From a virus (lineage: Duplodnaviria; Caudoviricetes): 64,000 nucleotides of DNA. Shown piece after piece: positions 9,607 through 39,951 of the stretch. Where the stretch lies: IMG/VR virus record IMGVR_UViG_3300033146_005369, positions 13,108 through 77,107 of that record; one strand, written 5' to 3'. The number at the start of each line of letters is the position of its first letter. The first letter of the stretch is position 1. The position numbers and the translations under genes were made by a program. The notes under the pieces were generated by a model. That model was not told the origin of the DNA, ran no database searches, and was given only the letters and a program-made list of their open reading frames with translations.

Positions 9607-10635
9607 CTAAAGATCTAAATTCAACTTGAAGGTAAATTCATCTTTTTCTAATTTTTTAATCGGCGTTGCTAAAGATGCAATTCCTAAAAGCTTTTTATCT
9701 TCATCATATACTAAAACTTTCGAAATGAATGTTTGTCTTTTAAATGATGAAGTCAAATCACTATAAGAAGATGTAACAACATTTTGGACCTTTGTTTCGA
9801 CATTTTCTAAATATTTTGCCGAAGATGTTGCAAACGTTTGATACTCTTCAGTAAATGTTGGGTTATTAGAAGAATTCAGTTCACCTTTTTTTGCATGAGC
9901 GAAACATGTTAAAGTGTTAGTGTAGTTGACACCCTTAAATTCTATTGTACTAGCAATTTCCAACGAGTCAATATCTCCAAATGATCTCCACTGAGTCGTA
10001 ACACCAGTTCCTAAACACCAGGAGCCAGTCATTAACAAGATCCCATCATTATACAAAATCAACCCAACACTTTCACCCTCATGACTTCCTGATGTTTCTC
10101 TCAATAATCCATCATTATACAAATCTTCAGCAATTGAAACAATATTGTCATTTTTTCGCGCTGTTAATTTTATAGAACCTTTTTTTAAAGAAGTCCCATA
10201 AAAAATTTTAGGAATGTTGATCACTCCAATATCTTTTGTTTCTAATATCTCACTATTAAAATCAGATGAGATAATTTTGTTATAATCAATCTTGTTCCTT
10301 AATGAATTGAACTTAATAGAATCACCAAAAGGTGTCAAATATTCTTGCGTTATTGAAGCTGTCAACGGATAAGAACCAGTGATTATATCTCCATATTTAT
10401 AAATTGAATTGATATCACCTTCTGTAACACTTTTAAAACTAAGTAATTCCGAGTTTTTGTAAACATAGGGATATATTTCTAAAATATTTTCCCCAAAGAT
10501 CGAAATACTGTTGTCATAAGATACATTTTTTCTTCTTTGATAAATCGCTTCACCATCCGCCATTTCACAGATGGTGTAAGGATAAGTTTTAATCCTGTTT
10601 CTCAGAATATCATTTTTATCAAATTTAAAAAACAT
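9607..10635 (-). CDS. Virion structural protein (baseplate/tail-fibre attachment-like C-terminus)
   Basis: C-terminal ISKVLVYDEDKKLLGIASLATPIKK resembles tail-collar/fibre-proximal motifs. Paralogous C-terminus to 10636..11685. Confidence 0.65.
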   Translation of the reverse strand: MFFKFDKNDILRNRIKTYPYTICEMADGEAIYQRRKNVSYDNSISIFGENILEIYPYVYKNSELLSFKSVTEGDINSIYKYGDIITGSYPLTASITQEYLTPFGDSIKFNSLRNKIDYNKIISSDFNSEILETKDIGVINIPKIFYGTSLKKGSIKLTARKNDNIVSIAEDLYNDGLLRETSGSHEGESVGLILYNDGILLMTGSWCLGTGVTTQWRSFGDIDSLEIASTIEFKGVNYTNTLTCFAHAKKGELNSSNNPTFTEEYQTFATSSAKYLENVETKVQNVVTSSYSDLTSSFKRQTFISKVLVYDEDKKLLGIASLATPIKKLEKDEFTFKLNLDL

Positions 10636-11685
10636 TTAATAACTTATTCGTGTTCTGAAAATCGCTTCAGTATCAGCAGATTTCTTATATGGCTCAGAAA
10701 GTTTCGCAACCGCAAGCAACTCACCATCAGGAGAATAAAGACCAATTCCAGTTATGTAGGCAACCGGCAAATCTTCTGACCTACTTTTGACTACAATCTT
10801 GCTATTTGACAAATAAGTTGGATTACTAGAGTAGTTAAACTCATTGTGATTCAGGCGAACAAAATAAATTGATGACTGGACTTCGGTTGTGTTAGAGAAA
10901 GTGATGTCGCGAATTCTTTCACGCATTTCGTTGGCAATATTATCAATTGTGTTACCAGTAGCCATAAATTCTAAAGGTCCTCCAGAAGAGGAAAACTCCA
11001 TTCCATCACCATCGTTGATATAATGCGATACAGACCCGGAAAGAACTAGCAAGCCAGCCTGATAAAAAATTAATCCAAACCCGGATTCACTATTTGGAGT
11101 TGCAGAGGAAGTATAAATAATTCCATACTCTCCAACAGGAGAATTAACTTTGTACGCGCTTGAAGCTCCATAATCACCGAACACTAAATCTAAATCATCT
11201 GATGAAAAATAATCCCCATAAGCTCCAGTGCCAAATGTAAATCTGAAAGAATCCTTTTTAATTTCATCTTTATATAAAGACCTATCAAAAGAGAAGAAAA
11301 AACACTCCTTCAATTTTGTTCCGCCTTCTGTTATGTTACCATCCTGATCAAATTCTAAAATTTGCCCTGTTGAATCATGCCCGAACAAGACTTGAGCCAT
11401 TTGATTATAAATTGCTATTTTCTTTGAATTTTGCTCATTTGTAGAAGCTGAAAGGTCTGAAGTACCAGCGTAGCCAAAAGTAATATCAAACATAGGAGAA
11501 GCAGAAGAAGATAGGTATGGATAATCATACACTTTCTGGAACATGCCATGTGAAAATGTTTTGATATTTTCATCGGTATAAGTACCTGACGTTATATAAG
11601 TCCCGGTAATTGGAACTCCCTCATGCAACAAGGATTTAACCCTTGTGTGGTCGTTCTCTGAGAAATTTTTATATGAAGTTGACAT
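10636..11685 (-). CDS. Virion structural protein, paralog of 9607..10635
   Basis: C-terminal NEFNYSSNPTY...ITGIGLYSPDGELLAVAKLSEPYKK aligns with GELNSSNNPTF...LGIASLATPIKK of its neighbour. Confidence 0.65.
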   Translation of the reverse strand: MSTSYKNFSENDHTRVKSLLHEGVPITGTYITSGTYTDENIKTFSHGMFQKVYDYPYLSSSASPMFDITFGYAGTSDLSASTNEQNSKKIAIYNQMAQVLFGHDSTGQILEFDQDGNITEGGTKLKECFFFSFDRSLYKDEIKKDSFRFTFGTGAYGDYFSSDDLDLVFGDYGASSAYKVNSPVGEYGIIYTSSATPNSESGFGLIFYQAGLLVLSGSVSHYINDGDGMEFSSSGGPLEFMATGNTIDNIANEMRERIRDITFSNTTEVQSSIYFVRLNHNEFNYSSNPTYLSNSKIVVKSRSEDLPVAYITGIGLYSPDGELLAVAKLSEPYKKSADTEAIFRTRISY

Positions 11686-11693
11686 TTGTTCTC

Positions 11694-37706: not shown

Positions 37707-38194
37707 CTTTTTCTTCCTTTTCCTTTAAGTTTAATTGCCCTTAATAATCTAAAGTCATTAAGAACCTCACTAATGTTATCAGAACATATTCCTGCACATT
37801 TGTCAAATGATTTTATTATTTGTTCCTTATCATCATTTAAAAAGACAATGACAGAATTTAAATTGTATTCCTCCTCAGAGAATGTCCAGATGAAACCCTT
37901 GCTCGTAAAAACCCTTTCGTCATTTTCATGCCAAAATGTGTTAAATTGTTTCAAAGCGCTCATTGCTTGCAAATTTTTGGCATGAAACCAGGAATGATTG
38001 GAGATATTTTTTAAGAAATCAAAACCAACTTCATATTGCGGCTCATCGTGCCCCAGAGCAAATGCTCCATCTTTGTACCAAATATCAATTTCAACCTCGA
38101 AACCTTTTTGCAAAGCACGAAGAAGATAATCTGGGTGGTTTTCTAGCTGAGATTCACCTGCAAAATTACCTCTATGTGCAATAAAATGCATCAT
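37691..38194 (-). CDS. GDPD/PLC-like phosphodiesterase-fold protein
   Basis: FIAHRGN, EVEIDIW, LGHD and WFHAKN motifs. Confidence 0.75.
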   Translation of the reverse strand: MMHFIAHRGNFAGESQLENHPDYLLRALQKGFEVEIDIWYKDGAFALGHDEPQYEVGFDFLKNISNHSWFHAKNLQAMSALKQFNTFWHENDERVFTSKGFIWTFSEEEYNLNSVIVFLNDDKEQIIKSFDKCAGICSDNISEVLNDFRLLRAIKLKGKGRKRWEKV

Positions 38195-39951
38195 TCTACT
38201 ATATATTCTCCGTCAACATCAAGTTTCGTTACAATATCTATCATTTCTGCATCAGTTAAAACTCTGTTCCACCATGCCACACTTCTGATGTACATATCAT
38301 CAGCATATTCGTAATCTTGATGGTTTGAATCGCCAGGATAACCTCTTGCTATTCTGAAACTAGCTCCATCACTATTCGGAACACCACTTCTGATGATGCG
38401 TGTATTGGCAGTAGAGCCAGTAACATCGTATAAATAAGTCAAATTGAGTGTTCTATTGGCTATAATAAACATGTTCTTAATCACACCAAATGGTGTTGCC
38501 GTAGTCCAACTTGTTAGATTCCCATTCAATTCCAATTGGATAGAAGTCATATCACTTGCTAAACTTAAAATATTAGTTCCGTGCGATAATATGGTGTGAT
38601 CGCCCGTAACCGAATCCATTTGTATTTGCAACAAAATTGTTATACTGTTAGTACTAAATGGTATTTGAAGATCTTGATTCTCACAATATTGTTGAGGATT
38701 AGCACCGAAATAACGTTCGTATATAATTTCACTACCAGAACCAACAGTCCCACTTGTATATGTGTAAGGTTCGTTATACAATGTTAAATCATATGAAGAC
38801 ATCACATCAACTGATGATGTGCTGGCTGTCCCGGTCTCTTGAAATGGCCAATAACCACGCAATCCATCTGAATACGCAATTGTTTGATTAGAATAATAAG
38901 GAGAACTTGTTTCTAATTGAGAACCATACCACTCTTGTCCAAACTGATTCTCGACTCTTGCTTGAACGGCATGAATATTAGATGATGATACAACAAGAAT
39001 TGTTGCATCATAAGTGCCGGTCACACTTGTTGCAACTTCAGTTGTATAATTCCATGGTTCATCCCCACTACCACTTTCTACATCGCGATATCTAAAGTTG
39101 ATATTAACACTATCTTCTGGCCCTAATGAATTAAGATTACCTCTGGTTATCAAATAACTGCCAGACATTTCCGGAGTCAATGTTGAAATTTCAGGTATAA
39201 GAGCAGTATCACCGGCAGAACTGACTGTCATAGAATATTTGTCATTACTGCCTAACATATAGTCAACTGTTGTGCTTGGCACTTCAAGTTTGGTAGCGTA
39301 AAAATACTCACCATAAGCTGAATCATCAGGATTCATTAATTTGAGAATTACTCTGTTATAATCAGATGATATTTTCCTTACCAACCATTTTTGATCACAA
39401 TGTTCAATAAATGATGCTGATGGTATTAGAACTGTGAAAGATCCAGATGAGCTATCAAGTTCAACAACTTCATCTGTTGCCTTCATCATTTTCTCTTCAG
39501 CGCTTGAATTATAATCAATCAATCTTGTTGTATAGTGACGTGGAAAAACATATTGCCTGATGACACTAGCTCTCTCATCTTGAACAATATACCATTTACC
39601 TGATTTGTTTTGAAATGTTGTGCCGAATGGCACAACGTGCTTCATGTAAAATGAGCTTTCGCCATTAATATCTTGCTCAGTTGTCGTTTTAATTGTCAAA
39701 CTTGAATCGCCAGAATAATTATAAACTCTTATTCGGCTATCATCATCAACAGCATCAGGGTCAGGAATTGTTACATAAGTTGCTGTGATAGGTGATTCAG
39801 CGCCATTGATATAGTAAACCTTGTTGACATCAGTTATTGTATAATACCCTGAAGTAGCATCTACTTCTTCAATTGTCATTCCATCAGTGCCATTTCCACC
39901 ATTGCACGAATATGGCGAATTAAAACTATTATTAAAACCTGCTATTGTCAT
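38191..39951 (-). CDS. Tail fibre/virion decoration protein with C-terminal LamG-like domain
   Basis: Fibre-like repeats (DEVVELDSSSGSFTVLIPSA), GLRGYWPFQE and VAWWNRVLTDAEMIDI. Confidence 0.65.
   Translation of the reverse strand: MTIAGFNNSFNSPYSCNGGNGTDGMTIEEVDATSGYYTITDVNKVYYINGAESPITATYVTIPDPDAVDDDSRIRVYNYSGDSSLTIKTTTEQDINGESSFYMKHVVPFGTTFQNKSGKWYIVQDERASVIRQYVFPRHYTTRLIDYNSSAEEKMMKATDEVVELDSSSGSFTVLIPSASFIEHCDQKWLVRKISSDYNRVILKLMNPDDSAYGEYFYATKLEVPSTTVDYMLGSNDKYSMTVSSAGDTALIPEISTLTPEMSGSYLITRGNLNSLGPEDSVNINFRYRDVESGSGDEPWNYTTEVATSVTGTYDATILVVSSSNIHAVQARVENQFGQEWYGSQLETSSPYYSNQTIAYSDGLRGYWPFQETGTASTSSVDVMSSYDLTLYNEPYTYTSGTVGSGSEIIYERYFGANPQQYCENQDLQIPFSTNSITILLQIQMDSVTGDHTILSHGTNILSLASDMTSIQLELNGNLTSWTTATPFGVIKNMFIIANRTLNLTYLYDVTGSTANTRIIRSGVPNSDGASFRIARGYPGDSNHQDYEYADDMYIRSVAWWNRVLTDAEMIDIVTKLDVDGEYIVE

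Follow-up and report, generated by a model that had tools for sequence, protein, structure and literature searches.

We analysed a 64,000-nt window of the genome of an uncultured, marine, T4-like phage (IMGVR_UViG_3300033146_005369, positions 13,108-77,107 of that record). Virion genes and a locus of sugar genes both lie on its minus strand. The virion genes, with [ST]GS tripeptides counted against the number expected where given, are these:

9607..10635, minus strand: 342-aa distal tail or fibre-module protein; 3 [ST]GS, 0.38 expected
10636..11685, minus strand: 349-aa paralogue of the 342-aa ORF; 1 motif
11694..12608, minus strand: 304-aa conserved tail-module protein; 1 motif
18614..21982, minus strand: 1122-aa protein, conserved C-terminal part of a giant protein; 8 [ST]GS, 0.86 expected
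21984..23135, minus strand: 383-aa LamG protein, middle piece of the giant protein; 3 [ST]GS, 0.70 expected
23136..27176, minus strand: 1346-aa protein with two LamG (Laminin_G_3) domains; 11 [ST]GS, 1.47 expected
27176..28549, minus strand: 457-aa wedge protein, directly after gp6; 3 [ST]GS
28549..30342, minus strand: gp6-like inner baseplate wedge protein, the internal negative control; 0 motifs
38191..39951, minus strand: 586-aa Ser/Thr-rich protein inside the variable sugar island; 5 [ST]GS, 0.94 expected

The 1346-aa ORF is the N-terminal third of a giant baseplate protein, which in many relatives is encoded by a single ORF of 3,000-4,100 aa. The 383-aa protein is a paralogue of the LamG region in the 1346-aa ORF, and homologues of the 1122-aa protein (25-33% identity) occur in 23 IMG/VR contigs. 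In the 457-aa wedge protein, a CBM-like jelly roll precedes Ig/FN3-like β-sandwiches (AF2 pLDDT 88.6; fold search). Orthologues of the 342-aa protein in genomes G1, G2, G3 and G014 carry 4-7 motifs, and the single motif of the 349-aa protein occupies a position homologous to TGS203 of the adjoining 342-aa ORF. The 586-aa protein, which has no Pfam match and no homologue in G2 or G5, may be LamG-like, judging from weak feature and structure matches (Atlas scores ≤0.88, TM <0.4).

The first-pass annotation had counted 35 [ST]GS tripeptides in eight of these ORFs, totalling 4,889 aa. A recount gives exactly this number, distributed as 3, 1, 1, 8, 3, 11, 3 and 5 from the 342-aa to the 586-aa ORF. 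Composition-preserving shuffles, proposed along with that count, yield an expected total of 5.96, corresponding to an excess of about 6-fold. By the same shuffles, enrichment is individually significant for the 1122-aa and 1346-aa proteins (p<0.0005) and for the 342-, 457- and 586-aa proteins (p<0.01); the two ORFs with a single copy, of 349 and 304 aa, show no individual enrichment. As had been noted earlier, the motif is missing from the gp6-like, 770-, 917- and 921-aa ORFs. Nor is the excess general to the window, as the remaining 47 ORFs, when pooled, contain 6 copies against 5.1 expected. Within the eight proteins, SGS (22 versus 3.7 expected) ranks first and TGS (13 versus 2.4 expected) third among 8,000 tripeptides, and no enrichment is seen for the permutations GSS, SSG and GGS or for NGS, DGS and SGN. 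Serine codons in the motif come from both the TCN and AGY families at background ratios, indicating that the signal resides at the level of protein, not DNA.

The same excess, in the same proteins, is found in ~90 related uncultured phages. In principle, composition or mutation could generate it incidentally, through loops rich in Ser, Gly and Thr in rapidly evolving proteins or through a bias at the DNA level, and motif-bearing proteins are indeed somewhat enriched in these three residues. However, observed/expected ratios (O/E) were reckoned against the own composition of each protein. Shuffling in local blocks of 6 aa, across 20 relatives, gives 139 ± 11 motifs versus 475 observed, or just 29%, and permutations of the same residues occur at 0.9-1.6×. 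Both serine codon families are used at their background ratio, and the excess is present over the full range of GC content among the relatives (0.29-0.49). We consider this explanation highly improbable; tripeptide ranking, codon use, motif grammar and local shuffles all refute it.

Comparison of the relatives shows that [ST]GS, while an ordered, protein-level motif as first described, is too narrow a definition. Across the family it reads [ST]-[G>A>S]-S, with enrichments of 5.2× for TGS, 4.4× for SGS, 3.8× for TAS and 3.3× for SAS. Both flanking hydroxyl residues are required: GS preceded by any other residue is near 1×, as is [ST]G followed by a residue other than Ser or Thr. Position 3 strongly favours Ser over Thr (xGT, 2.2-2.7×), and NGS, DGS, SGN and SGD are all near 1×. 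At homologous sites, the S/T flanks are kept and the centre interchanges between G, A and S; the G5 sequence L022 often retains the central Gly while its flanks change. The residues around the motif are enriched in hydrophobic, strand-type amino acids.

Earlier inspection of the window had suggested that the motif marks outward-facing virion proteins, and the wider comparison bears this out: the only proteins to carry it are the wedge protein, the giant LamG protein and fibre proteins, together with regions of the sheath and capsid that lie outside their cores. For the complete genome G2, these regions are sheath residues 155-621 (core, 632-980) and capsid residues 115-279 (core, 326-567), and two small neighbours also have motifs; none occur in gp6, in the 3170-, 1297- and 972-aa proteins, or in enzymes. 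The gp6-like protein has 0-1 motifs in ~70 relatives. Virion proteins of T4 have 2 motifs versus 8.1 expected. Where the excess is present, the wedge protein contains 7-21 [ST][GAS]S per ~500 aa. Its motifs fall at 26 recurrent sites, each filled in 10-90% of 57 homologues, for ~13 motifs per protein. Of 114 sites in the giant protein, half occur in one sequence alone, and ~20 are common to 5-19 of 24 aligned rows. Individual sites are facultative, and motif density is maintained despite their turnover.

The second part of the window relevant here is the sugar-gene locus, which comprises the following:

36201..36866, minus strand: conserved 221-aa gene, downstream edge of the island locus and synteny anchor; its product looks sigma-factor-like
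37691..50268, minus strand: variable sugar island, flanked by the conserved sigma-like gene and the GT4 pair
50153..51502, minus strand: GT4b, degenerate GT4-like partner, 449 aa (Pfam 0.00029, below cut-off)
51454..52743, minus strand: GT4a, GT-B glycosyltransferase, 429 aa (Pfam Glycos_transf_1, 6.9e-14), with invariant E-x7-E

GT4a, which belongs to the family's core genes and shows 47-48% identity to its G2 and G5 counterparts, is a candidate for the catalytic subunit of a protein O-glycosyltransferase. GT4b adjoins it wherever the pair was located, with synteny in G1, G2, G3 and G5 and at 20 loci. The pair is kept in most relatives examined, with G020 an exception. In a PDB sequence search, the closest solved relatives of GT4a are BshA, trehalose- and sucrose-phosphate synthases and, weakly, chlorovirus PBCV-1 B736L (2.7e-5); GT4b has no match. 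The same search returned no specific similarity of the pair to known protein O-glycosyltransferases, GtfA/GtfB included.

The island itself encodes an RmlB-like dehydratase, a WecB/NeuC-like 2-epimerase, a truncated DegT aminotransferase, a GNAT protein, a 537-aa protein with a GT2 domain, a MUG113/T5orf172 gene product and several unknowns. This content does not recur in G1, G2 or G3, and equally enriched relatives carry quite different sugar genes at this locus; the islands compared have no transferase family in common. In G1, G3, immuto and Mel-JY01, every island is a set of glycan-building genes; among them are transferases, epimerases, a sulfotransferase with APS kinase, and methyltransferases. 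Of the island at 37.7-52.7 kb initially proposed to serve the motif, only the GT4 pair (50.2-52.7 kb) is shared; most of 37.7-50 kb is not conserved. Sugar islands of this sort are ordinarily interpreted as serving to alter the surface of the host, which counts against a role in virion modification.

How does the motif co-vary with these genes? Three distant cultured relatives, the only cultured phages with GT4a, all have the same GT4 pair and all are enriched: immuto of Flavobacterium (61 motifs versus 13.7 expected), Mel-JY01 of Microcystis (45 versus 6.1) and RM378 of Rhodothermus (51 versus 19.1). Within the family, one nested clade (the G5 clade) has lost the island, and its O/E of 0.7-2.5 compares with 2.7-7.1 in ten island-bearing genomes (Mann-Whitney p = 0.0003, a value that ignores relatedness). 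Summed over orthologues, observed/expected counts are 182/39.3 in island-bearing and 21/11.3 in island-less genomes. One member of the island-less clade, G020, has lost the GT4 pair from its syntenic place and has none in its known sequence; there the ratio is 1/2.8, or 0.36×. The pair is present with enrichment in the marine family, immuto, Mel-JY01 and RM378, and absent without enrichment in T4 and G020. Co-occurrence of motif and island, the check proposed earlier, gives a mixed picture: the island-less nested clade is weakly enriched and T4 is not, but RM378 has a clear excess with the GT4 pair and no large island. One caveat is that all island-less genomes belong to one clade and represent a single evolutionary event, so that the evidence from island loss is only suggestive. 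Moreover, since the G5 clade keeps GT4a, complete with its invariant E-x7-E despite little excess, and RM378 lacks a large island, no single gene cleanly tracks the motif.

It is also conceivable, though improbable in our estimation, that the motif is a signal of another kind. A phage or host enzyme could use it for phosphorylation, acylation or some other modification, or it could form a hydroxyl-rich patch selected for binding or low surface charge; the sugar genes nearby would then act on the host cell surface or on the DNA. Sequon-like specificity and restriction to surface proteins are compatible with this idea, as are the lack of a universal island gene and the intact GT4a where the motif has decayed. 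However, when G1, G2, G3 and G014 were compared with G5 and G9, no kinase or modifying-enzyme candidate tracking the motif was found. Confined to the former group were only two genes for small proteins and a third that probably falls beyond the contig ends in the latter. The GT locus is the one genomic feature seen to differ between relatives with and without enrichment.

The mapping of motifs on AF2 models, as had been suggested, places them in loops and hairpins of β-sandwich domains (LamG, CBM-like and Ig-like). In the model of the 1346-aa protein, which covers residues 100-700 (LamG1 pLDDT ~90), the LamG1 motifs are at tight hairpins or just before strands. Those of the wedge are mostly in longer loops adjoining strands, and some are inside strands. 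In each case they are single tripeptides within confidently folded β-sandwich domains, rather than long disordered repeats. Many of the motifs are hairpin or strand-flanking turns, as would also be predicted if the motif is structural. The sequence x-G-[ST] is a textbook type II' β-hairpin, the turn preferring Gly followed by Ser, Thr or Asn. Tight two-residue turns that may be of this type are formed by 2 of the 5 LamG1 motifs, an observation that counts against a sequon.

Might [ST]-G-S then be a purely structural turn? It would be a lineage-typical β-hairpin or strand cap in β-sandwich domains, combining a type II' turn with a cap from a Ser/Thr side chain, inherited by descent and domain duplication and left unmodified. 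We regard this as rather unlikely. The position of motifs at hairpins or adjoining strands in both models, with a G-S core between two strands at several sites, fits the idea, as do the strand-type flanks, the ~20 widely shared sites of the giant protein, the frequent survival of the central Gly in L022 when flanks change, and a site held in common by each of two paralogous pairs. On the other hand, a Gly-dependent turn does not fit with the substitution of Ala or Ser for Gly at homologous positions, nor with the 3.3-3.8× enrichment of SAS and TAS. The turn rule needs no hydroxyl before Gly, and NGS, DGS, SGN and SGD, which are equally good turns, are near 1×. In orthologues of the same fold the excess is lost, being weak or absent in the G5 clade and absent in G020, and T4 has none. 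Many sites are facultative, and apart from the two pairs BLAST detects little paralogy between motif-bearing regions.

The reading we favour, at about even confidence, is that [ST]-[G/A/S]-S is instead an O-glycosylation acceptor signal, read in the host cytoplasm on folded, outward-facing virion proteins. In this model, the soluble GT4a/GT4b pair (50153-52743) would add the first sugar to a Ser of the motif, which is displayed in loops and at the ends of β-hairpins in LamG, CBM-like and Ig-like domains. Position 3 is the suspected acceptor, because it strongly favours Ser over Thr. The hypervariable island would supply unusual nucleotide sugars, further transferases and decorating enzymes, such that each phage strain may wear a different glycan on the same sites. 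In its favour are the need for three ordered positions, the restriction to exposed virion parts, the upkeep of density at facultative sites, the interchange of G, A and S between constant flanks, the enrichment of the family and of the three cultured phages with GT4a, its absence from T4 and weakness in the island-less clade, and the glycan-building content of the islands. The intact GT4a of the low-excess clade, the lack of a universal island transferase and the lack of likeness to O-glycosyltransferases count against the model.

Several known systems resemble the one proposed. The virions of mycobacteriophages (Che8 and others) are reportedly O-glycosylated by phage-encoded glycosyltransferases (Freeman et al. 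2023, Cell Host Microbe 31:1216, cited in PMC11256854). This glycosylation has been chemically demonstrated, and PMC11256854 gives major capsid proteins as its targets. In common with it, the present system has phage-encoded soluble transferases (GT4a, GT4b and the GT2 domain), a proposed cytoplasmic decoration and an outward-facing glycan coat. It differs in that the candidate signal is a discrete tripeptide scattered over folded β-sandwich domains of T4-like aquatic myoviruses; for the mycobacteriophages, we know of no short sequon. Like GT4a/GT4b, the streptococcal and staphylococcal O-GlcNAc transferase GtfA/GtfB, which acts in the cytoplasm on serine-rich repeat adhesins, consists of two adjacent GT4-fold proteins, one of them degenerate. 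Its acceptor Ser lies in S-A-S or S-x-S, comparable to the context proposed here; however, its acceptors are long disordered repeats, not isolated tripeptides on folded domains, and the PDB search revealed no specific likeness in sequence. In bacteria, the autotransporter heptosyltransferases TibC and Aah, as well as EarP, act in the cytoplasm and recognise a structural feature of their folded substrate. The proposed acceptors are likewise β-turns or hairpins of folded β-rich proteins, with many sites, but the enzyme folds and families differ. We know of no motif in common with the glycosylation of chlorovirus capsid protein or mimivirus fibrils. That glycosylation is virus-encoded and is the subject of two reviews (PMC7019647, PMC12866637). 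It shares with our proposal a viral sugar pathway with transferases and lineage-variable glycans, though those are eukaryotic giant viruses with different, atypical N-linked sites.

Finally, a broader reading is tentative, and we hold it at somewhat below even confidence: aquatic T4-like phages (at least 590 IMG/VR contigs plus immuto, Mel-JY01 and RM378) may share the [ST]-[GAS]-S sequon, its writing by a GT4 heterodimer, island-extended strain-specific glycans, and stepwise loss of the system in one clade. The glycans would then amount to phage "serotypes", analogous to bacterial O-antigens. Because three cultured phages, immuto, Mel-JY01 and RM378, carry the same signature, the claim is directly testable. 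To our knowledge, glycosylated phage particles have so far come from a few mycobacteriophages. Should the motif prove to be a sequon, a sugar coat would be a common feature of virions among the abundant myoviruses of the sea and fresh water, one whose sites and glycan genes are both readable from sequence alone. The hypervariable island would gain a virion function rather than a host function, with bearing on host recognition, on the grazing and aggregation of viral particles, and on their resistance to proteases.

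On translation of eight structural ORFs of the window (342, 349, 304, 1122, 383, 1346, 457 and 586 aa), the tripeptide [ST]GS is found 3, 1, 1, 8, 3, 11, 3 and 5 times, respectively, exactly as counted by eye in the first-pass annotation, whose count of zero in the gp6-like, 770-, 917- and 921-aa ORFs is likewise reproduced. The excess claimed there survives composition-preserving shuffles performed protein by protein: 35 motifs are seen in 4,889 aa, versus 5.96 expected. The remaining 47 ORFs of the window contain 6 in total, versus 5.1 expected. For the 1122- and 1346-aa proteins, the observed number was reached in 0 of 2,000 shuffles, and the 342-, 457- and 586-aa proteins are individually enriched (p<0.01); the 349- and 304-aa ORFs, with one motif apiece, are not. 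In these eight proteins, SGS ranks first (22 versus 3.7 expected) and TGS third (13 versus 2.4) of all 8,000 tripeptides, and GSS, SSG, GGS, NGS, DGS and SGN show no enrichment. TSS (17 versus 3.6) and SSA (11 versus 2.4) are also in excess in this set; family-wide, SSA drops to 1.3-fold and TSS, at 2.2-fold, falls within a wider [ST]-[GAS]-S rule. Serine codons are of both the TCN and AGY types, at the background ratio, and therefore the signal lies in the protein; this codon variety rules out a cause at the DNA level.

All genes of the window, which comes from a 77-kb viral contig, are on the minus strand. The terminase shares 40% identity with that of Flavobacterium phage vB_FspM_immuto; Microcystis phage Mel-JY01 and Rhodothermus phage RM378 are related more distantly. 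A near-identity DNA search returned no match among cultured phages, and no homologue of the giant baseplate protein or of the 1122-aa protein was found among them. Scans of IMG/VR with the single 1346-aa or gp6-like protein gave no matches; alignment-based scans succeeded. Homologues of the 1122-aa protein occur in 23 IMG/VR contigs (25–33% identity, from phages of ~186–205 kb), and the gp6-like alignment recovered at least 593 loci. The 1346-, 383- and 1122-aa proteins correspond, in most of the 23 relatives found first, to one giant ORF of 3,000–4,100 aa, which in the window (18614–27176) is cut into three abutting ORFs. Splits recur in four related phages (G013, G014, G017 and G019), which suggests genuine modular splitting and not an error. 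Elsewhere, a single 994-aa ORF (4013–6997) matches SbcD-like families over residues 1–297 and SbcC-like families over residues 282–992 and thus encodes an SbcCD nuclease fusion, which G2, G5 and the other relatives share. A 499-aa protein (59137–60636) has a C-terminal match to the histone H1-like HC2 domain (E 6.5e-10, slightly under the Pfam cut-off), which is probably a basic low-complexity tail.

The same pattern is seen in all but a few relatives, over a GC range of 29% to 49%. Their gp6 has 0 motifs, the ~500-aa wedge protein that follows it has 4–11 [ST]GS (~1 expected), the giant protein has 12–24 (3–5 expected), and the next large proteins have 0–1. In wedge and giant proteins totaling 75,533 aa, TGS occurs 227 times (43.7 expected), SGS 248 times (55.9), TAS 153 times (39.8) and SAS 168 times (51.0). 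The full tripeptide matrix yields a rule over three positions, [ST]-[G>A>S]-S, with a weaker signal for xGT (2.2–2.7-fold); any other first residue, or a last residue outside Ser/Thr, gives ~1-fold. Shuffling inside blocks of 6–40 residues leaves 111–139 motifs versus the 475 observed, and composition as the cause is thus ruled out by global and local shuffles alike. The motif flanks show a mild bias only, toward hydrophobic strand-type residues.

PHROGs and Pfam give most motif-bearing proteins no name, and a PDB sequence search with the 1346-aa protein came back empty; Pfam does identify LamG domains in the 383- and 1346-aa proteins. In an AF2 model of the first LamG domain (pLDDT ~90; the second LamG region of this model, with pLDDT <50 at residues 196–436, was left aside), two of the five motifs form two-residue β-hairpins, and the other three lie at the start of a loop or immediately before a strand. 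Some of the motif sites are ordinary hairpin turns, as would be expected if the motif were purely structural, a reading we consider unlikely. The wedge protein gives a good model (pLDDT 88.6), in which a CBM-like jelly roll precedes Ig/FN3-like sandwiches. Among its 57 homologues, 753 [ST][GAS]S motifs fall at 26 recurrent sites, mostly strand-adjacent loops, each occupied in only 10–90% of sequences. Of 114 sites in the giant protein, 57 occur in a single row of the 24-row alignment and ~20 in 5–19 rows; at shared sites the S/T flanks are kept and the center alternates among G, A and S. In the complete genome G2, enrichment is seen in the tail sheath at residues 155–621, outside the conserved core (632–980), in the major capsid protein at residues 115–279, outside the core (326–567), and in two small neighboring proteins; no enrichment is seen in its internal or inner proteins and enzymes.

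The first-pass annotation proposed that the [ST]GS sites of the window's outward-facing proteins are O-glycosylated by products of the whole island at 37.7–52.7 kb. The features of this region are as follows.

Sugar locus of the window and its neighbors
37691–50268, minus strand: variable sugar island
40325–40804, minus strand: MUG113/T5orf172 gene, within the sugar island
43780–44388, minus strand: truncated DegT aminotransferase, just 202 aa, about half the normal length
50153–51502, minus strand: GT4b, GT4-type gene, adjacent to GT4a
51454–52743, minus strand: GT4a, GT4-type gene
53415–54041, minus strand: conserved 208-aa protein adjoining PIN-PhoH, a core gene beside the GT4 pair, weakly matching, below threshold, the anthrax lethal-factor-type metalloprotease domain
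54038–55399, minus strand: PIN-PhoH fusion protein, a core gene beside the GT4 pair
Other sugar genes, minus strand: RmlB-like dehydratase, WecB/NeuC-like epimerase, GNAT acetyltransferase
Other transferase gene, minus strand: one GT2 domain

The window's sugar island may be partly eroded or in flux. When the window is compared with G1, G2, G3 and G5, only the GT4 pair is conserved at this locus (44–48% identity to the window in G2, 35–46% in G5). On its PhoH side the pair is always flanked by a conserved 258-aa gene, and on the other by a variable stretch reaching to a conserved sigma-like gene. This stretch, whose content differs almost entirely among the four, spans 12.6 kb in the window, 10 kb in G1, 18 kb in G2 and 7.5 kb in G3. 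That of G1 encodes GT32-like and other transferases, a B12-radical-SAM enzyme, LicD, an epimerase, UDP-glucose dehydrogenase, a sulfotransferase with APS kinase and two FkbM methyltransferases; this island (L127:9457-19421) amounts to a phage's own toolkit for making a glycan that is sulfated and methylated. That of G3 encodes GT77- and GT47-like transferases, a nucleotidyltransferase-kinase, an epimerase and a GDP-mannose dehydratase. Clustering of the proteins of 11 islands yields one widely shared family, an NAD-dependent epimerase/dehydratase (8 of 11); no transferase family is present in every island. The similarities of GT4a are to BshA and other generic GT4 enzymes rather than to GtfA. 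The proposed link to the whole island is correct only in part: what is conserved is the GT4 pair, and the remainder is a hypervariable cassette.

Beyond the family, 19 virion proteins of T4 show no excess ([ST]GS 2 versus 8.1 expected; [ST][GAS]S 24 versus 24.6). GT4a homologues occur in only three cultured phages, immuto, Mel-JY01 and RM378, and in one uncultured 484-kb record; all three cultured phages are motif-enriched. Immuto (61 versus 13.7 expected in its baseplate/fiber block, with none in gp6) has the GT pair, gp181 and gp180, and an 8-kb glycan island; Mel-JY01 (45 versus 6.1) has the pair with a GT-A gene, a methyltransferase and a GT2 gene; and RM378 (51 versus 19.1 genome-wide, 21 versus 3.3 in one block) has the pair, whose neighborhood adds no more than two weak GT2-like genes.

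G5 (the record of L022) serves as a natural control. Orthologues of the motif-bearing proteins are present, without excess: over 16.8 kaa, SGS occurs 7 times (7.3 expected) and TGS 3 times (5.6 expected). G5 pairs with L095 inside the family in the gp6 tree, so the loss is derived. At homologous sites, G5 often retains Gly and has D/E/K/R in place of the S/T of others. Only ~0.2 kb separates its GT4 pair from the conserved small gene preceding the sigma-like gene, and hence G5 has no island. With the sigma-like gene as anchor, a scan brought up ten further contigs without an island, each of them close to G5. In wedge and giant proteins taken together, the observed/expected ratio of [ST]GS is 0.7–2.5 in eight island-less genomes versus 2.7–7.1 in ten island-bearing ones, with no overlap; orthologue-group totals are 182 (39.3 expected) in enriched genomes versus 21 (11.3 expected) in G5 and G9. 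A phyletic profile (presence in all complete enriched genomes, absence from G5 and G9) gave no candidate enzyme, only two small proteins and one gene probably beyond contig ends. Giant structural proteins of the G5 record (L034-L039) have an excess of Cys tripeptides (CDE 11 versus 1.5, plus ECC), which hints at Cys-rich repeat domains. In G020, a close G5 relative (sigma-like gene 73–75% identical), the GT4 pair is gone from its syntenic place and has no match in the 48.6-kb contig (~27% of a genome). Counts there are 1 [ST]GS (2.8 expected) and 5 [ST][GAS]S (9.8 expected); G020 thus lacks, within this contig, both the pair and the excess.

Four points weaken the sequon reading. The motif loss is a single evolutionary event; GT4a, with its invariant E-x7-E motif, is intact in the clade where the motif decayed, and the pair alone therefore does not guarantee the excess; no transferase is common to every island; and some motif sites are plain hairpin turns. 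Nonetheless, a modification signal fits better than a structural turn, because the rule is ordered over three residues and restricted to exposed parts of the virion, sites are facultative with density kept, T4 lacks the motif, and the motif has decayed in the nested clade whose GT locus is reduced. Some other modification or surface function strikes us as slightly less probable even than a purely structural role. Since glycan genes adjoin, the best candidate is that [ST]-[GAS]-S is an O-glycosylation sequon of these phage virions, a reading to which we give about even chances.
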